Source of the DNA: Candidatus Yonathbacteria bacterium
GTDB taxonomy: Bacteria; Patescibacteriota; Minisyncoccia; Phycocordibacterales; UBA1550
DNA: 55,863 bases
Direction: 5' to 3'
NCBI GenBank assembly: GCA_003483855.1
Contig: DMXP01000002.1
Span: 56,851-112,713 of the forward strand
Part shown: positions 2,347-41,591 of the stretch, piece after piece
How positions within the stretch are numbered: the stretch's first letter is position 1
Layout: every line of letters starts with the position of its first letter
Translations under genes and position numbers: made by a program
Notes under the pieces: generated by a model
Database searches by the model: none
Told to the model about the DNA's origin: nothing
The model's input: the letters and a program-made list of their open reading frames with translations, nothing else

Positions 2347-2610
2347 ATGGAACCAATAAATATCATTAAAAATGAGGGAAGTCGTATAACAAACGAAGTC
2401 CGTGAACGTTCAATGACTTACATAGCAGGAGGTTTAGGTATCGTAGTTGGCCTCGCATGGAATGAGGCAATCAAGTCGCTCATTGATTACCTTTACCCAG
2501 CTTCATCAGCTAACTCAATTTCTGCAAAATTTGTTTATGCAATCATTATTACAGTAATTGTAGTACTTGTGACAATGTACATAGTGCGTCCTCCAGCAAA
2601 AAAGGTATAA
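2347..2610 (+). CDS. Small 2-TM protein, DUF5654-like
   Basis: GLGIVVGLAWNEAIKSLI pattern and two hydrophobic helices. Confidence 0.7.
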   Translation: MEPINIIKNEGSRITNEVRERSMTYIAGGLGIVVGLAWNEAIKSLIDYLYPASSANSISAKFVYAIIITVIVVLVTMYIVRPPAKKV

Positions 2611-2616
2611 AATATT

Positions 2617-3525
2617 CTATGAAACAAGTGACTGAATAGGAACCTCCAATTTTGCGAATGCGGAATTTTTGTGCACGTTGCCTTCTTCGTCTATGAGAAA
2701 GTAGGGAAGCCCGCTTTGCTCTAGGCGAGCGGTGGCTTGTATCGGTCCGAGGAGTATCGCGAGCGATGCTTCTGTATCGGCGCGCTCGCATGTTTCCGCT
2801 ATTACTGTCGCGCTTACCACGCCGTTTGCAGGACATTTATTTTTCATATTCACTAGATGGTGCCATTTTTTGCCGTCCTGCTCGCCTTTTGTTTGGTACA
2901 CGCCAGATGTCGCTATACCAGCGTTTTTTAGCCCCACAGCAGACACAATGGCGTCTGGATTGTTCGGAGCCTGCACCGCGATATTCCATGCCGAACCCCC
3001 ATCGTAGTCCCCTTTTGTTAAAATATCCCCGCCGACATTTATCATAAATCCTGGCACTTTTTCTAGTGCCTTTCCAGCAGAGTCTATCGCCATTCCTTTT
3101 ATAATGCACGCAGGTTCCAAAATTTGCCCAGGCGCGAGACGGATGAGAAGCTCGCGTTCATTGAAAGCAAGGTCGCGATATGTGGGAGAGTTTGCAGGCG
3201 AAATAAAATTTTCTGGTAGCCCGTAACCATACGATGCTAGAATACCACCGACAGATGGGTCAAATGCGCCATCTGTTTCCGCAGATAGGGCTACGCATTT
3301 TTTGATAACCTGAAAAAGTTCCACGCCAACTTTGTGCCATGCGCCATTACTCATATTTAGAGCCATAAGCTCGCTATCTGGTTCGAAGCGACTAAAGCGA
3401 AGATCGTATTCATTGAATACAATCTCGGCTTTTTTAACTGCTTCGCCTGCTTCTTTTTTTGGTAATCCAACAATCGTGATATGAATTGGAATACCCATTG
3501 AGTGAAAAACGTAGTGTTCGGTCAT
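2617..3525 (-). CDS. apbE: FAD:protein FMN transferase (ApbE family), no N-terminal signal peptide
   Basis: SMG start motif, RFSRF..DSEL, GAFDPSVG, IIKG.AID, NVGGDI, ATSG, HHL, SATV. Confidence 0.9.
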   Translation of the reverse strand: MTEHYVFHSMGIPIHITIVGLPKKEAGEAVKKAEIVFNEYDLRFSRFEPDSELMALNMSNGAWHKVGVELFQVIKKCVALSAETDGAFDPSVGGILASYGYGLPENFISPANSPTYRDLAFNERELLIRLAPGQILEPACIIKGMAIDSAGKALEKVPGFMINVGGDILTKGDYDGGSAWNIAVQAPNNPDAIVSAVGLKNAGIATSGVYQTKGEQDGKKWHHLVNMKNKCPANGVVSATVIAETCERADTEASLAILLGPIQATARLEQSGLPYFLIDEEGNVHKNSAFAKLEVPIQSLVS

Positions 3526-3536
3526 ATAGTAAAATT

Positions 3537-4097
3537 TTAATCATCGTCATGATCGTCATCCCATTCATCATCATCATGATCGTTACCTTTTCGGTATTTT
3601 TTAGGTACTGCAGGTTTTGCAGTTGATGTGGTTATTGCGCTTCCAATATTTGCAGTTATTGATTGTCCTTCTGTATTTGCCTTAGCAATAGCGCTTTCCA
3701 GTGAGGATTTGAAGGCGATACTTGTATACGTTGCGCCTGATACCCCCTGTATATTTGCTGAACCTGCCCTAAGTGCTTGCTCAACTAAAAATGGCTCAGC
3801 ATAAACAGATGGGGGAGAATCGGGGATTGATGGCATATTTGTAGCAATAATTTTCCCATCCTTAACAGTAATAGAAGCAACCGCGTTGCCCCACGGGGTT
3901 TGGTATGCTTTTCCAGTAATGGTCGTCGCAGAGGATAGAACAGACGGAGATAGAGGAGCTGTTCCTTCTGGCGTTGTCGCTGTTGCAAGTACCCCCTCCT
4001 TCTTAATACGAGTAATGCCGGCAAATACTAAAACAACTGAAACCGCTGTAAAGAAGATAACGAAAAACTTTTGAAGAATTTTTGATAAAGAGGTCAT
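3537..4097 (-). CDS. Membrane-anchored FMN-binding (flavinylation substrate) protein with acidic His/Asp tail
   Basis: N-terminal TM helix; TPWGNAVASITVKDGKI and GVSGATYTS ([S/T]GA[S/T] motif); ends NDHDDDEWDDDHDDD. Confidence 0.85.
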   Translation of the reverse strand: MTSLSKILQKFFVIFFTAVSVVLVFAGITRIKKEGVLATATTPEGTAPLSPSVLSSATTITGKAYQTPWGNAVASITVKDGKIIATNMPSIPDSPPSVYAEPFLVEQALRAGSANIQGVSGATYTSIAFKSSLESAIAKANTEGQSITANIGSAITTSTAKPAVPKKYRKGNDHDDDEWDDDHDDD

Positions 4098-4099
4098 AA

Positions 4100-4570
4100 T
4101 TATACTGCTTCAAATATCTCGCGAACTTTAGAGCGAATAAAGAACCACCAACCAAGAAGAAGCACCAACTCTCCTAGATAAAGAGCTACGAGCGCAAATG
4201 CGAAACTCGTTACCTCTCTTTGAATAGCTGTAGTGGATTTCATTAGCACAGCTTGTTTATCAATGTCAGCGTAAGCGAGGTATCTTTCATCGCCAATTGA
4301 GGTTTCGTAAAACCCGACATGTGCGCTCGATTGGGTACGAAATAACAAAATATCTTCCGGTAGCGTAACCGTTTGTTCAGTGGCTGTTGCATCTGGTGAT
4401 GGAAGAGACTCACTATATCTTAGAAGCTCATCATGTAGTTCGTTGTTTTCTATCCAGTTAAGAGCTCCTAATGTAACGCCATTTAATGCAAGGAGCGCAA
4501 AAAGAACCGCAATACCATAATTGCGCACTGCCCCTAGCCCTCTATACACAGCTATTTCGTTTGATTCCAT
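4100..4570 (-). CDS. 2-TM membrane protein with an ~85-aa extracytoplasmic loop (orphan sensor-like domain)
   Basis: Two hydrophobic segments flank a soluble loop; ends about 10 aa after TM2 with no signalling domain. Confidence 0.65.
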   Translation of the reverse strand: MESNEIAVYRGLGAVRNYGIAVLFALLALNGVTLGALNWIENNELHDELLRYSESLPSPDATATEQTVTLPEDILLFRTQSSAHVGFYETSIGDERYLAYADIDKQAVLMKSTTAIQREVTSFAFALVALYLGELVLLLGWWFFIRSKVREIFEAV

Positions 4571-4594
4571 AATGTTTTATTATTATCTCTAAAT

Positions 4595-4671
4595 TATACC
4601 CCCACACCTACTTTTTTCATAGTCAGTTCTGTTGTTGAATACAAAAAAGTGAAAGTAGGTGTGGGGGTATA
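4595..4671. repeat. 20-bp perfect inverted repeat with 37-nt spacer inside the operon
   Basis: TATACCCCCACACCTACTTT (4595-4614) and AAAGTAGGTGTGGGGGTATA (4652-4671). Confidence 0.9.
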
Positions 4672-4675
4672 CTCC

Positions 4676-5404
4676 CTAGCCAAACTTTTGTACAAATACT
4701 TGTTTCTTAGGCATTCCAATATCCTCAAGAGCGGAGAGTACGCCAAGTGTCATTGGAGGAATACCGCAAATATAAATATCGCTCTCTTTTATTGATTCCG
4801 CGTTTTTTGGAACATAGTCGGTTACGTATCCACGAGCCCCTCTCCACGACGGGTCTCCGTTTGAAAGAACAGGGTTAAATGTAACGAGTCCTGGATACTT
4901 TTGAGCAAGATCCTCAAATTCATTTTTGAAAGCGATGTCCGATTCTTTTGGAGAGCCAAGGTAGATGGTTGAATGCGCGCCCTCTTTGATAGCTTCCTCA
5001 AGCATCATTCTAAAAGGCGCGATACCAGTAGATGTGGCAAAGAATACTTTTGGTCTGCCTGTGCCAGAGCGGTACGGAAAATCATCAAAGGGTCCGTAAA
5101 AAAGCACTTTTGTTCCAACTGAAGTGTCGCGAAAGAATCGCGCCCCGCATCCACCTCCAGAAAAACTTACTAATAGTGTGAATGAATGATCGTCGCTTTT
5201 TGCGGTGGAGTAGCATCGTGGTACGCAGTCCCATGTGAGAGCCGTAACATACGACCCAAGGGGGAATGGCGCCTTTATGTTTTCTGGAAGGCCGATTCGG
5301 ACTCGTTGAATACGCGAACCAATGCGCTCGCTTTCAATGATTGCGCCAGTGAAGTGATGCGCTTCTGTGAACCATTTGCGAACGACGCGAGGAATAATTT
5401 TCAT
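4676..5404 (-). CDS. FAD/NAD(P)-binding oxidoreductase, ferredoxin-NADP reductase (FNR/Fre) superfamily
   Basis: RCYS (RxYS FAD motif), GGCGARFF, GPF, ATSTGIAPF, YICGIPPM, terminal KFG. Confidence 0.85.
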   Translation of the reverse strand: MKIIPRVVRKWFTEAHHFTGAIIESERIGSRIQRVRIGLPENIKAPFPLGSYVTALTWDCVPRCYSTAKSDDHSFTLLVSFSGGGCGARFFRDTSVGTKVLFYGPFDDFPYRSGTGRPKVFFATSTGIAPFRMMLEEAIKEGAHSTIYLGSPKESDIAFKNEFEDLAQKYPGLVTFNPVLSNGDPSWRGARGYVTDYVPKNAESIKESDIYICGIPPMTLGVLSALEDIGMPKKQVFVQKFG

Positions 5405-5406
5405 AT

Positions 5407-5649
5407 TTAGAAGAATACAAAGAATACCGAACTAAAGAGCGCGAGGAGAAAGTGAACCAAGAGAATTCCAAAGCAGAGCCAGCCAAACCAGTGATGAAAC
5501 GGCGTGAGCGGTATTTGAAACTTTGTAAAAATATTGTAGTTGTACTGTTTCGTAAGGGCGGTAATGAGGAGCAATAAAAAAAAGAACCCGCCAATCATGC
5601 CAGTCCACCACACGAGTCCGTGCCCCATAAATATTGTCATTGGTGTCAT
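5407..5649 (-). CDS. Small 2-TM protein with paired His on TM2 (putative half cytochrome b, DUF4405/ferric-reductase-like)
   Basis: HHWFGWLCFGILLVH places His residues 13-14 apart in one helix; directly upstream of the FNR gene (2-nt gap). Confidence 0.55.
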   Translation of the reverse strand: MTPMTIFMGHGLVWWTGMIGGFFFLLLLITALTKQYNYNIFTKFQIPLTPFHHWFGWLCFGILLVHFLLALFSSVFFVFF

Positions 5650-5797
5650 ATTCGTAATACAGACGGCGATAATTAGCCATTCTTACCGATATATTATCAC
5701 TTATATTGCTATGTTGTAAACGGTGGTTGTCATTTGCGAGTGGTTGTGATACGTTAAAAATAGAAGTACCGACAAACCGTAGAAGGAGAACATTCAA

Positions 5798-5908
5798 ATG
5801 CTGAAAAAGATATTTTGCGCAATTTTGGAAGCAATCAAATGTTTGGACCCCTCAAGATTCAAGGAGTTCAAGAACGAGATGGATCGCGACCAAAAACACG
5901 CGCAGTGA
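5798..5908 (+). CDS. 36-aa small ORF (MLKKIFCAILEAIKCLDPSRFKEFKNEMDRDQKHAQ)
   Basis: AAGGAG SD at 5783-5788; followed immediately by the palindromic terminator. Confidence 0.4.
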   Translation: MLKKIFCAILEAIKCLDPSRFKEFKNEMDRDQKHAQ

Positions 5909-5914
5909 AAAGAA

Positions 5915-5946
5915 AATGCCCACATCGCAATTGCGATGTGGGCATT
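5915..5946. terminator. 32-bp perfect palindrome between convergent ORFs (bidirectional terminator-like)
   Basis: AATGCCCACATCGCAA|TTGCGATGTGGGCATT. Confidence 0.75.
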
Positions 5947-5956
5947 CATTTTGTTG

Positions 5957-6253
5957 CTAAAGATCATGAGCGGGGATTCCCGCTATGAGTGACGCTTCGC
6001 ATTTCCCAGCGTCCTCAATGTGTTCGTCTCTGGTCATTTTTGAAAATAAATTCATTTGCTGACCAGAGATTTTTAACTTCCTCGGACGTTTCTTCCTCTT
6101 GCCGAGGATGCTCCCGACTTCACGACGTGTTGTTGCGAAGTCAAGATTGTAATTTCGCATCACTTGCGCGAATGCAAAATCAAACCCAATCTTCTCGGAT
6201 TTCATTACGAATGAAATCCGATTTGCGACTTCAACATAAATGTCGTTGCTCAC
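5957..6253 (-). CDS. Hypothetical basic protein with QMNLF clamp-binding-like motif
   Basis: GTG start with AAAGGTGG SD 6 nt upstream and TGGTATAAT promoter further upstream; 98-aa ORF. Confidence 0.65.
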   Translation of the reverse strand: MSNDIYVEVANRISFVMKSEKIGFDFAFAQVMRNYNLDFATTRREVGSILGKRKKRPRKLKISGQQMNLFSKMTRDEHIEDAGKCEASLIAGIPAHDL

Positions 6254-6348
6254 AGCACACCACCTTTCAAAATTTATCTTTTTATATTATACCATATCCA
6301 CAGAAAAAAGCAAGCGAAAACGCTATGCACAAAATATCCACAGAATTA

Positions 6349-6537
6349 AGGGTCTACCTCCAATCTCGCATCCGAACAGAACGGCAGAATTTCTTGGCAA
6401 AAAGCAAGCTGGAGCCCGAATCATATCGAGATATTATGAGGGCGAAGCGAAGGTTTTTTGACAGAAATTCTGACGTTCGGACGGATGAGCAAGAATTTTC
6501 AAATGTATATATTGCGTCGAGATTGGAGGTAGGCCCT
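6349..6537. repeat. 189-bp rod-like palindromic element (MITE-like or structured ncRNA)
   Basis: Terminal 20-nt IR AGGGTCTACCTCCAATCTCG / CGAGATTGGAGGTAGGCCCT (19/20) plus nested inner stems. Confidence 0.7.
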
Positions 6538-6620
6538 ATGCATTTTTTTGGAATTTTGAAACTTGCGAAGGCATGCGGTTGTGTTAAGATAAGTGCACAC
6601 AAATTAATTTTATACTCTTT

Positions 6621-35192: not shown

Positions 35193-36332
35193 ATGGACGA
35201 CGTATACAAACGATCCCTTAGTCTTCACAAAAAGCACAAGGGCAAAATTGAAGTAATAAGCAAAGTTCCTCTCACAAATCGCGAGGAACTTTCTCTTGCG
35301 TACACACCAGGAGTAGCAGAGGCTTCGCGTGAGATTGGGCGCGACGAATCGCTTGTTTACGATTACACGATAAAAGGCAACACAGTTGCCATTGTTTCCG
35401 ACGGATCAGCAATCCTTGGTCTAGGTAACCTCGGAGCGCATGCGGCTATCCCTGTAATGGAGGGCAAAGCGGCAATTTTTAAAGAATTTGCAGGAATAGA
35501 CGCGTTCCCTATTTGTGTAAACACTCAGGATGTAGAGGAAATTATTACCCTCATAAAAAATATCGCGCCTGTTTTTGGCGGTGTTAATCTTGAAGATATT
35601 TCTGCCCCGAGATGTTTTGAAATAGAGGGGCGTCTACGCGCGGAGCTTCCAATACCAGTGATGCACGACGATCAGCATGGCACAGCAACGGTCGTTCTTG
35701 CGGGGCTCATCAACGCGCTAAAACTTCGTGAAAGCAAAAAAGAGGATGTGAAAGTAGTAATGAGCGGGGCGGGAGCTGCAGGCACTGCTATCACAAAACT
35801 TCTACTTGAGTATGGGTTCAAGCATTTCATCGTTTGCGACACAAAAGGCGCGATATTTGATGGACGCGGCGATTTGAATTCTGAAAAAGAAGAGCTTGCG
35901 CGCATTACAAATCTCAACAAGAAAGCTGGAGCGCTTGCCGAAATTCTTCACGATGCAGACATTTTTATCGGCGTATCAAAAGGCGGGTTGTTAACCGCAG
36001 AGATGGTAAAAACAATGGCCGACAAGCCGATCATTTTCGCGCTTGCAAATCCGATACCAGAAATAATGCCTGACGTAGCAAAAGAGGCAGGCGCATTTGT
36101 TGTTGCGACTGGTCGTTCTGACTTTCCAAATCAAATAAATAATTCGCTTGCCTTCCCAGGAATTTTCCGCGGTGCTCTAGATAACCGCATCAAGCAGTTT
36201 AATGAACAAATGTTCATTCGCTCGGCAGAAGCGCTTGCAGGATATGTAAAGGACCCAAAACAAGATCAGGTGCTTCCTTCAATGTTTGATAAGGGAATTA
36301 TTGAGGTTGTCAAAGAGGTGATTCGCGATTAA
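35193..36332 (+). CDS. NAD(P)-dependent malic enzyme (short form, no PTA domain)
   Basis: AYTPGVA, VMEGK, NLEDI.APRCF, HDDQHGTA, GAGAAG, FALANP, NQINN.L.FPG. Confidence 0.92.
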   Translation: MDDVYKRSLSLHKKHKGKIEVISKVPLTNREELSLAYTPGVAEASREIGRDESLVYDYTIKGNTVAIVSDGSAILGLGNLGAHAAIPVMEGKAAIFKEFAGIDAFPICVNTQDVEEIITLIKNIAPVFGGVNLEDISAPRCFEIEGRLRAELPIPVMHDDQHGTATVVLAGLINALKLRESKKEDVKVVMSGAGAAGTAITKLLLEYGFKHFIVCDTKGAIFDGRGDLNSEKEELARITNLNKKAGALAEILHDADIFIGVSKGGLLTAEMVKTMADKPIIFALANPIPEIMPDVAKEAGAFVVATGRSDFPNQINNSLAFPGIFRGALDNRIKQFNEQMFIRSAEALAGYVKDPKQDQVLPSMFDKGIIEVVKEVIRD

Positions 36333-40922: not shown

Positions 40923-41591
40923 CTATTTGAATTCATAAACGAGTATAGCTGAAAAAATGCTAAATGCTCCAGTTCTTTGCCCTTCAAACCTGAGTGATAT
41001 TTTGTTTGGAAACTTAGCGTCTACTCCAACGCTTATCATTGGAGTAGTTCCTCTGTACTTGCTTTCATCTGCCAGAAAGGTTGATGTGTCCGGGAGTAAA
41101 ATCCTGGTGGTCGTTTTTACGTTATATTCATAAAAACCAACTCTCCCAAATATATCAACATAATCACTGGCGGGTAATTTCAATAATGCAGATAATTGTG
41201 ACGCCGTAACATCTGCATCCTGTCGAACAAAAATATTCGCAGGCAGGGCGTTAAAATTTACTGCTGACCCGTTAACATTTATAACACCTATGCCTGTATT
41301 ATTAATTGAGAGACTTTTACTAAAGCGAGCTCCCCACAAATATGCTGCCTCTATGCAAAAAATCTCATTCCAACAGCGACCAAGAGCTAACGATTTGTAC
41401 GTCGTTTTATTCTTTATATCTGAATTATTAATGATACCCGTAGCGTTTGAAATCTGCTTTTCGGTGTCTGACTGCCTGAATGTGTTGAGGACTGCCATCT
41501 GCCCAACACCGATACTACCTGTCCAGATTGCTTCTGCATGAACATGCATTGGCAACAAAAGAACAATTACAAATACAAGATACTTTTTCAT
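40923..41591 (-). CDS. OmpA-like 8-stranded outer-membrane beta-barrel protein
   Basis: Sec signal peptide (..VHA|EA); strand pattern KSLALGRCWNEIFCIEAAY, LSALLKLPASDYVDIFGRVG, ISVGVDAKFPNKISLRFE, C-terminal LVYEFK. Confidence 0.7.
   Translation of the reverse strand: MKKYLVFVIVLLLPMHVHAEAIWTGSIGVGQMAVLNTFRQSDTEKQISNATGIINNSDIKNKTTYKSLALGRCWNEIFCIEAAYLWGARFSKSLSINNTGIGVINVNGSAVNFNALPANIFVRQDADVTASQLSALLKLPASDYVDIFGRVGFYEYNVKTTTRILLPDTSTFLADESKYRGTTPMISVGVDAKFPNKISLRFEGQRTGAFSIFSAILVYEFK

Follow-up and report, generated by a model that had tools for sequence, protein, structure and literature searches.

Introduction

Members of the Patescibacteria, or Candidate Phyla Radiation (CPR), are usually described as purely fermentative and devoid of electron-transport chains. 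Five neighbouring genes of Candidatus Yonathbacteria, a groundwater bacterium with a tiny genome, raise the question of whether such organisms can pass electrons from NAD(P)H to the outside of the cell. The genes, here termed g1–g5, occupy positions 2617–5649 of a 55 863-nucleotide (nt) stretch of contig DMXP01000002.1, which is referred to below as the window. A preliminary description, made from the sequence alone, had proposed a five-gene operon for flavinylation and transmembrane electron transfer, in which the small protein g1 acts as a dimeric mini-cytochrome b between a soluble reductase (g2) and a membrane-anchored protein (g4) that carries covalent flavin mononucleotide (FMN) installed by ApbE (g5).

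Flavinylation has been found to be strikingly under-represented in CPR, and only Nqr/Rnf-like clusters were noted there (Meheust et al., 2021; PMC8238504). The same survey defined 1797 MsrQ-like clusters, most of them actinobacterial, and in 1437 of these a PF00175 reductase domain is fused to the cytochrome. In the ferric-reductase domain (FRD) superfamily, to which MsrQ belongs, both cofactors lie within a core of four helices, h2–h5; MsrQ itself, with one haem on the outer side and FMN on the inner, receives its electrons from Fre, a soluble protein of the FNR family and a separate polypeptide (PMC12525009). Our search of the literature on ApbE in Patescibacteria found no report.

In this study, we analysed the conservation, family relationships and gene order of g1–g5 and their homologues. 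The small gene g1 is real and under purifying selection, and its recurrence with the other genes is more than chance. By function, g1 probably belongs among the bis-histidine membrane cytochromes, and the evidence tilts towards the cluster being a split, minimal NOX/MsrQ-like electron-export module.

Results

The cluster and its conservation

The five genes were identified as open reading frames (ORFs), three of them with additional Pfam matches.

5407–5649, minus strand: g1, 80-amino-acid hairpin protein with two transmembrane (TM) helices (ORF)
4676–5404, minus strand: g2, 242-amino-acid FAD/NAD(P)H oxidoreductase of the FNR family (ORF and Pfam)
4100–4570, minus strand: g3, 156-amino-acid membrane protein with two TM helices (ORF)
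3537–4097, minus strand: g4, 186-amino-acid FMN_bind protein with an SGAT motif (ORF and Pfam)
2617–3525, minus strand: g5, 302-amino-acid ApbE, FAD:protein FMN transferase (ORF and Pfam)

All five are co-oriented, as had been described. The tight spacing attributed to them applies to g1–g2, g3–g4 and g4–g5 (2, 2 and 11 nt) and not to g2–g3, where the gap is 105 nt. The nearest homologues are named Candidatus Yonathbacteria (Patescibacteria/Parcubacteria group), in agreement with the CPR-type genome first supposed.

Word-indexed searches retrieved about 60 clusters of g1 homologues, 77–85 amino acids long, unnamed or annotated as 'hypothetical' and nearly all from Patescibacteria. The family is small, because an exhaustive phmmer search of 1.84 billion representatives gave only eight matches, three of them spurious. 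P0025, P0029 and P0030 (homologous proteins and loci are denoted by P and L numbers) were rejected as homologues, as these large repetitive surface proteins match through repeats of the 'GWLCFGIL' or 'VNWTG' type. A g1-family profile recovered members in 22 species-level genomes, all metagenome-assembled genomes (MAGs) of uncultured organisms, with labels that are mostly Yonathbacteria, Paceibacterota, Nomurabacteria or similar. Compared with its closest orthologue, g1 shows a nonsynonymous divergence (dN) of 0.016 and a synonymous divergence (dS) of 0.206, a dN/dS ratio of about 0.08; against more distant homologues dS is saturated and dN is 0.12–0.17. g1 is a real gene under purifying selection, and this ratio, together with the recurrence of the cluster in more than 20 species-level genomes, makes the arrangement more than a product of chance.

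Synteny was read from the 22 species-level loci of the genome collection and from metagenome contigs (about 25 loci). The order g1–FNR–g3–FMN_bind (one to five domains)–ApbE occurs in about 18 of them, over FNR identities from 86% down to 50% and amid differing neighbours, such as RarA, a SWEET transporter and UvrD around the cluster in L008. In L033 and L034, with g1 identities of 46 and 35%, the order is FMN_bind–ApbE–g1–FNR and stop and start codons overlap. FMN_bind and ApbE accompany the g1–FNR pair in about 20 of the roughly 25 loci, twice in rearranged order, and co-occurrence that survives rearrangement is good evidence, at the level of genome comparison, for a functional link. g3 is absent from L022 and from L031–L034. 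The co-conservation on which the original proposal depended is thus borne out, and a hierarchy emerges: an obligatory core of g1 and FNR, a usual FMN_bind and ApbE module, and a clade-specific g3. A further observation concerns L010 (positions 5636–6564 of a long-read-type contig), where an intact g1 (77 amino acids) is followed by an FNR ORF called as N-terminally truncated and then by short fragment ORFs; either the cluster is in decay here or the assembly contains frameshifts.

The histidine pair of g1

The most conserved residues in an alignment of 60 g1 sequences are W15, G17, G21, K34, N37, H52, G56, W57 and H66.

5494–5496, minus strand: H52 of g1
5452–5454, minus strand: H66 of g1

The preliminary description had drawn attention to histidines 13–14 residues apart in one helix, and H52/H53 and H66 do lie at this distance within the second hydrophobic helix (TM2). 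H10 and H53 are not kept throughout the family, and TM2 has one histidine pair, H52 and H66, exactly 14 residues apart, with a glycine (G56) at +4 from H52. The pair, whose loss from homologues would have spoken against a haem site, is conserved: H52 is retained in 59 and H66 in 58 of the 60 members, including homologues at 27–35% identity, and the exceptions trace to a frameshifted fragment. A GxxGG packing motif in TM1 (G17xxG20G21) and K34 and N37 in the TM1–TM2 loop are likewise conserved down to 27% identity. This loop, which also holds the conserved Q45, is predicted to be cytoplasmic by the positive-inside rule. In the AlphaFold2 (AF2) model built from a 50-sequence alignment, g1 forms a helical hairpin with high confidence (pLDDT 93.5), the helices lying at residues 12–35, 39–45 and 49–76.

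The sole Pfam match of g1 is Ferric_reduct (PF01794), at 17.6 bits against a cut-off of 28, over model positions 33–59 of 121 and covering the histidine-bearing helix. When 50 family members were scanned singly, PF01794 was matched by 40 (best E 9.6e-5), PF01292 (Ni_hydr_CYTB, prokaryotic cytochrome b561) by 22 and PF14358 (DUF4405) by 16 (best E 6.1e-4), always below threshold; best E values across the three families lie between 6e-5 and 6e-4. All three are families of bis-histidine membrane b-cytochromes, and no other Pfam family recurs comparably. The window g1 itself gave no match to PF14358 in the Pfam scan, and an NCBIfam scan gave no match. g1 is not demonstrably a member of PF01794, since its score is sub-threshold and it has two TM helices rather than six with the four-helix h2–h5 core in one chain, nor of PF14358, for which all matches are sub-threshold.

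A four-helix unit in a single chain is found only in the distant homologue P0024 (151 amino acids), a head-to-tail duplication of the hairpin with four TM helices, both halves of which keep the lysine, the asparagine, H-x13-H and the glycine. P0024 occurs twice in one MAG (L031 and L032), each copy overlapping the start codon of a 228-amino-acid FNR gene; in L032 the P0024 gene lies at positions 1695–2150. It fits a natural 'fused dimer', with the four TM helices and four histidines that a homodimer model predicts. In this MAG, FK3.bin15, the two near-identical copies (L031:4968–5423 and L032:1695–2829) comprise a glycosyltransferase gene, the tandem four-TM cytochrome-like gene and FNR, and the L032 copy adjoins a Wzm/Wzt-like ABC exporter; they stem either from a recent duplication of the segment or from the binning of two strains as one.

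The reductase g2

g2 matches NAD_binding_1 (PF00175) at 71.1 bits against a cut-off of 22 (E 1.5e-19), while FAD_binding_6 (PF00970) stays below its cut-off (18.4 versus 21.1 bits). The sequence carries RxYS (PRCYS), GxGxxP and CG motifs, and in an alignment spanning the whole N-terminal domain R-C-Y-S falls opposite RSYS in BenC reductase and RPYT in cytochrome b5 reductase; Fre presumably has RPFS at this position. The soluble protein g2 has neither a TM segment nor an Fe–S domain, and its best PDB matches are BenC reductase (1e-15), NADH-cytochrome b5 reductase (8e-14), NqrF and Fre (2e-9). These results uphold the earlier assignment as an FNR-like FAD/NAD(P)H reductase. Cytochrome b5 reductase is a good analogue, being a two-domain FAD enzyme that passes electrons directly to a b haem.

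In the window g2 starts 2 nt after the stop codon of g1, and in every locus with downstream sequence available FNR stands directly 3′ of g1, from a 14-nt overlap to a 30-nt gap. This constant adjacency or overlap argues for translational coupling and a stoichiometric complex of the two products. A fusion of hairpin and FNR was sought, and none was present among the phmmer matches of g1 in the 1.84 billion representatives; the 90 g2 homologues, at about 240 amino acids, likewise all stand alone.

The FMN_bind protein g4

g4 matches FMN_bind (PF04205) at 25.9 bits against a cut-off of 22 over residues 69–137, and the SGAT motif lies within this domain.

3729–3740, minus strand: S120-G-A-T123 of g4

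The protein consists of an N-terminal TM anchor (residues ~11–28), a Thr/Pro/Ser-rich linker, the FMN_bind domain and a C-terminal KKYR followed by a poly-Asp/His tail of the ...WDD type, so that the membrane-anchored SGAT protein of the preliminary description is confirmed. The hydrophobic anchor and the linker are common to all orthologues and paralogues, and all of them conserve the motif QGVSGAT[YV]TS.

Close relatives, with FNR 81–86% identical, have three to five FMN_bind domains between g3 and ApbE (L001, L002/L011, L014–L018, L020 and L030); L015, for instance, encodes a 204-amino-acid single-domain FMN_bind protein and a 584-amino-acid protein with four sites. The window holds one domain and no remnant of others, and the difference suggests that the array was recently expanded or contracted. 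Multi-domain FMN_bind proteins with anchors and Thr/Pro-rich linkers are indicative of an extracytosolic conduit.

The C-terminus of the Yonathbacteria-clade proteins (window 3537–3602; orthologues in L011–L028) reads P-[KR]-[KR]-Y-R followed by a run of Asp/Glu, sometimes with His, and often by ...EWDD; examples are PKKYRKGNDHDDDEWDDDHDDD, PRKYRGDDDEWDD and NRRHHDDDDD. This basic and poly-acidic tail is absent from the divergent clade (L008, L022, L023, L027, L029, L033 and L034). As a guess, the tail might bind cations, iron, other metals or a surface, or might serve as a sorting signal.

The flavin transferase g5

g5 matches ApbE (PF02424) at 167.6 bits against a cut-off of 25.6 (E 5e-49) over residues 10–271; with g2 and g4 it completes the set of proposed families, NAD_binding_1, FMN_bind and ApbE, that score above their cut-offs. 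It matches E. coli ApbE (4xgw) with E 8e-26 over residues 10–286 and aligns with the mature domains of both the E. coli and the Salmonella enzyme; the alignment takes in 'giatsgvy' against 'gistsgsy' (ATSGxY) and 'kkwhhlvnm' against 'krlshvidp' (H-H-L-V; the H-[ILV]-[ILV]-[DN] segment). g5 has neither a signal peptide nor a lipobox. This leaderless state, which had been remarked on at the outset, is real, because the upstream frame is closed by an in-frame TGA 15 nt 5′ of the ATG, and residue 10 is already part of the Pfam match, as its first position; ApbE is equally leaderless in L008, L015, L033 and L034, all the other loci read.

g3 and the regulatory region

In g3, an acidic domain of some 85 amino acids, predicted to be extracytoplasmic, lies between two TM helices. 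An alignment of 15 orthologues shows conserved GFYE and YLAY motifs and, in TM2, a membrane-embedded glutamate (E134) and GWW. No relative was found in Pfam, NCBIfam or the PDB, and AF2 run on the single sequence gave a poor model, with an overall pLDDT of 66.6 that drops to less than 50 within the loop. With low confidence, g3 may be a lineage-specific membrane accessory, such as a scaffold or sensor.

4595–4671, minus strand: perfect 17-bp inverted repeat (GTAGGTGTGGGGGTATA) with a 43-nt loop, in the g2–g3 gap
5693–5720, minus strand: promoter-like site TTTACA-16-GATAAT, 5′ of g1 (consensus scan)
5914–5947: strong terminator hairpin ending the preceding gene, 5′ of the promoter-like site

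The inverted repeat in the g2–g3 gap has a predicted RNA folding energy of −39.7 kcal/mol (z −5.9), and its g3-side arm ends in TATAAT (4593–4598), 24 nt before the ATG of g3. L028 has the same arms at the same site with a different loop, and many other relatives have a short g2–g3 gap with a conserved GTATAAT/GTATACT box. The repeat probably acts as a promoter inside the cluster, as a hairpin in the transcript, or in both ways. Hairpin, TATAAT and the box conserved in relatives together make an internal promoter for g3–g5 likely, and the 'operon' may then be two coupled units, which matches the modular evolution seen in synteny. The five-gene operon of the preliminary description is to this extent revised: its genes are co-conserved, but they do not form a fixed unit of five. 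Upstream of g1 the promoter-like site is no more than a candidate, such sites being no commoner here than in shuffled sequence.

Both arms of the hairpin contain the 16-mer TAGGTGTGGGGGTATA (window 4595–4611, minus strand, and 4655–4671, plus strand; L028 ~5950–6040). The same 16-mer is dispersed in Patescibacteria genomes, in at least 120 stretches (including L036–L115), with several copies per genome that often form inverted pairs 30–100 nt apart; for about 40% of the copies in the fetched loci, an ATG-started ORF begins 8–14 nt after the motif. The pattern suggests a G-rich extended −10 promoter (TATACT/TATAAT) for near-leaderless mRNAs, or a small palindromic mobile element carrying one.

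Neighbouring genes

The cluster is flanked by HAD/DUF5654 genes on one side and by ParB and RelA on the other. The DUF5654 gene (window 2347–2610, plus strand; E 8e-18) encodes a small membrane protein and is convergent to ApbE; a DUF5654 neighbour stands beside ApbE also in L003/L030, L016, L020 and L028, and may be loosely linked to the cluster. The 20 larger ORFs scanned between 9.6 and 41.6 kb of the window encode housekeeping functions, glycan metabolism, a P-type ATPase and malic enzyme. The malic enzyme (35193–36332, plus strand), a possible source of NAD(P)H, lies in a glycan-metabolism block with GT4, GH57, GH15 and an ROK kinase. A 222-amino-acid ORF (40923–41591, minus strand) matches OMP_b-brl at 32.1 bits against a cut-off of 28.7 and also OmpA_membrane β-barrel models; an outer-membrane-type β-barrel is unexpected in Parcubacteria, which are usually considered to be monoderm.

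Discussion

Proposed electron-transfer route

The features described above can be combined in a scheme that we hold to be somewhat better than evenly probable, that of a split, minimal electron-export module of NOX/MsrQ-like design. In the cytoplasm, NAD(P)H would be oxidized by g2, a soluble flavoprotein of the FNR type, which would dock on the conserved cytoplasmic loop of g1. Two g1 hairpins would pack into a four-helix bundle, in which the two H52 residues would ligate a cofactor near the inner face, either haem b or perhaps a flavin like that of MsrQ/STEAP, and the two H66 residues a haem b further out; both cofactors would carry electrons across the membrane. On the outside, FMN bound covalently to T123 of the membrane-anchored g4 would take up the electrons, with up to five such domains in relatives, and pass them to an extracellular acceptor such as Fe(III), O2 or the surface of a host or partner, and NAD(P)+ would be regenerated in an organism without a respiratory chain. 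ApbE would install the FMN by transfer to T123 of g4, and g3 would be a lineage-specific membrane accessory. Dimerization, haem binding and topology of g1, flavinylation of g4, and the direction and acceptor of the electron flow are all inferred elements of this scheme.

Several observations weigh against it. None of the 50 g1-family members scanned matches any cytochrome family in Pfam above threshold; a g1-family profile run against all PDB sequences returned no FRD, b561 or NOX chain and only the transporter Bor1p (E 0.21); hhalign of g1 with MsrQ and the cytochrome b561 YodB of E. coli was insignificant (P about 0.4, a probability below 1%); and Foldseek with the g1 monomer model found nothing at E < 3.6. 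(The Foldseek list includes subunits of cytochrome bc/b6f complexes and human Dcytb (TMq 0.67); given the simplicity of a hairpin, these carry no weight as evidence.) Haem synthesis is generally missing in CPR organisms. No gene for haem or flavin acquisition was found among the 20 larger ORFs scanned in the window, and no acceptor-related gene (VIT1 or a reductase) is linked to the cluster. L010 and L031/L032 have g1 and FNR without FMN_bind or ApbE, neither of which lies near P0024, so the flavinylated branch is not obligatory. The published flavinylation motif is D-x-x-[ST]-G-A-[ST] (PMC12052999), and its leading Asp, present in L034, is Gln117 in the g4 clade and Ser in L033; Asp-to-Ala exchange had only minor effects in experiments (PMC12052999). 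Finally, ApbE lacks an export signal in all loci read, yet its presumed substrate domain is predicted to be outside.

The mini-cytochrome interpretation of g1 therefore stands in part: cytochrome b families are its only recurrent Pfam matches and P0024 fits a bundle of four helices and four histidines, but every match lies below the curated threshold and the PDB profile, hhalign and Foldseek contributed nothing.

Alternative explanations

The mismatch between a leaderless ApbE and an outside substrate has two possible solutions. ApbE accepts a seven-residue tag (PMC12052999), and the still-unfolded substrate might be flavinylated in the cytoplasm and then exported; alternatively, a cytoplasm-facing FMN_bind domain might serve as an inner cofactor, as FMN does in MsrQ. 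The second solution corresponds to an inverted geometry, in which the g4 domain is cytoplasmic, is flavinylated there by the leaderless ApbE, and relays electrons from FNR through covalent FMN to the g1 haem(s) and an outside acceptor. This would need no FAD export and would suit the missing ApbE signal peptides. It has precedents in Klebsiella pneumoniae, where cytosolic ApbE modifies cytosolic FMN_bind domains (PMC12052999), and in MsrQ and STEAP, which hold a flavin in place of the inner haem (PMC12525009). The K. pneumoniae enzyme shares the lack of a secretion signal with g5; its substrate, however, is a soluble cytoplasmic fumarate reductase, whereas the only motif-bearing protein of the window is membrane-anchored and probably exported. 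The charges flanking the anchor are balanced in the window g4, and with two or three Lys/Arg on each side in the Yonathbacteria clade the positive-inside rule leaves the topology undecided; in L033 and L034, in contrast, lysines stand only on the N-terminal side, which indicates an N-in/C-out anchor and an outside-facing domain. The long Thr/Pro/Ser linkers, tandem FMN_bind arrays and poly-acidic tails also resemble published extracytosolic multi-flavinylated proteins (PMC11334425), and FMN_bind domains of the NqrC, RnfG and PplA types are extracytosolic. The linkers, the multi-domain forms and the anchors of L033 and L034 favour an outside-facing g4 domain over a cytoplasm-facing one, and we consider the inverted geometry unlikely.

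A second alternative retains the pairing of g1 and g2 and dispenses with the cytochrome: g1 would be a small membrane tether or regulator for FNR, with histidines that are structural or bind a non-haem ligand such as a metal ion or flavin, and g2 would act on free flavins as Fre does, the reduced flavins then leaving the cell or reducing iron. The want of threshold-level cytochrome homology, the doubtful haem supply in CPR organisms and the matches of g2 to flavin reductases of the Fre/LuxG type (E 2e-9 to 7e-15) are all compatible with it. Against this, a histidine pair 14 residues apart in a TM helix, with a glycine at +4, small residues on the same face and GxxGG in the partner helix, is a classic di-haem b signature; the family's recurrent Pfam similarities are to cytochrome b families alone; the tandem P0024 keeps all four histidines; and in g2 the RxYS motif for FAD binding, that of enzymes which carry bound FAD, is retained. 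We regard this alternative as rather improbable.

That the genes are incidentally juxtaposed, or that g1 is a pseudogene, the decayed remains of a full-length ferric-reductase/NOX gene from which the dehydrogenase domain has become separated, is scarcely credible: g1 and g2 lie 2 nt apart and out of frame, like a frameshifted fusion, and g1 matches only about 27 of the 121 PF01794 model positions, but g1 keeps its length of 77–85 amino acids in about 60 clusters under strong purifying selection, the sequence 5′ of it holds a terminator and a promoter-like site and no further TM-coding sequence, no full-length or FNR-fused relative appeared among the 1.84 billion representatives or the 90 FNR homologues, synteny is held across differing flanking genes and rearranged order, and the 35–98% identity range of the homologous loci excludes their being assembly copies of a single sequence. 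Conservation and dN/dS led us to reject g1 as what remains of a full-length FRD–FNR gene after a frameshift.

Relation to known systems

The electron-export module preferred here follows a logic that is already known from MsrQ-like systems (Meheust et al., 2021; PMC8238504). Shared with these are a candidate bis-histidine membrane cytochrome, a PF00175 reductase, an FMN_bind substrate, ApbE and the proposed flow from NAD(P)H through haems to extracytosolic FMN. The published form has a six-TM PF01794 cytochrome, usually with a C-terminal PF00175 domain, whereas the window has an 80-amino-acid two-TM hairpin of sub-threshold similarity and a separate reductase; its ApbE is leaderless, and its lineage is CPR rather than mainly actinobacterial. 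MsrQ-like systems were defined operationally by a PF01794 gene clustered with FMN_bind and/or apbE, and g1 falls under the PF01794 threshold; by this definition the cluster would not count among them, even though it would work in the same way. E. coli MsrQ with Fre and bacterial NOX (PMC12525009; PMC5676040) likewise combine a membrane FRD haem protein with a separate soluble donor of the FNR family, and have a four-helix core with two stacked cofactors. MsrQ, however, has six TM helices, is unlinked to fre and delivers electrons to MsrP; here the genes appear translationally coupled, the membrane subunit would need to dimerize, and the proposed acceptor is the FMN_bind protein.

FezC, a small DUF4405-like protein, binds haem b and has been modelled to form its sites by homodimerization (Huang et al., 2024; PMC11334425). 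It resembles g1 in being a small membrane protein with conserved TM histidines, DUF4405 is associated with flavinylation, and 16 of the 50 g1 members match PF14358 below threshold; there is no threshold-level homology, g1 is shorter, with two TM helices, and is paired with an FNR gene, whereas FezC occurs in ferrosome clusters. The Nqr/Rnf-like two-subunit systems of Actinobacteria and CPR, the only flavinylation-linked export previously noted in CPR (PMC8238504; PMC11334425), share a PF00175 module, an NqrC/RnfG-like FMN_bind subunit and a proposed one-way flow from NAD(P)H to the outside. Their conduit is an NqrB/RnfD-like domain fused to the reductase, in contrast to the histidine-bearing hairpin of the window. 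Multi-flavinylated 'beads-on-a-string' proteins (PMC11334425; PMC10339131), thought to serve as extracytosolic electron conduits (PMC11334425), have counterparts in the window's relatives, with two to four SGAT sites on low-complexity linkers, while the window protein is single-domain; the basic and poly-acidic ...WDD tail of the Yonathbacteria clade has not been described for them.

The module had been called notable for a CPR lineage, a judgement that needs to be narrowed. PF01794 ferric-reductase domains occur in 1427 of 7645 CPR genomes (bioRxiv 10.1101/2021.11.17.468889), so that candidate haem proteins are no surprise there in themselves, and the MsrQ-like design and the FezC homodimer are already published. 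The novelty lies in how the parts are built: the membrane subunit is a two-TM hairpin, much smaller than all relatives described to date; the FNR is a polypeptide of its own, translationally coupled to the hairpin; ApbE is leaderless; and a tandem-duplicated relative occurs in nature.

Biological implications

The survey of PMC8238504 would miss this cluster through its filters, which ask for ApbE/FMN_bind with signal peptides and a PF01794 match. Flavinylation-based electron export in CPR is probably under-counted, because the candidate cytochrome is sub-threshold and ApbE has no signal peptide. The combination of a leaderless ApbE and an apparently exported substrate turns the place and time of flavinylation into a specific, testable question.

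If g1 is indeed an 80-amino-acid homodimeric b-cytochrome, it would be the most reduced natural transmembrane electron conduit of the NOX/MsrQ/STEAP type, with 160 residues per functional unit, and a minimal model for structure, for evolution (from hairpin through tandem duplication to six TM helices) and for protein design. A bolder and improbable version would make g1 the unduplicated homodimeric four-helix, two-cofactor core and the smallest natural di-haem membrane cytochrome, its tandem cousin capturing the duplication step behind FRD/b561-type bundles, and would have the leaderless ApbE flavinylate the unfolded chain in the cytoplasm before Sec export, removing the need for an FAD exporter. 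For the organisms themselves, a group of Patescibacteria, the module would open a defined path by which electrons from NAD(P)H could leave the cell, with iron acquisition, O2 handling, redox balancing and exchange with a host as candidate uses.

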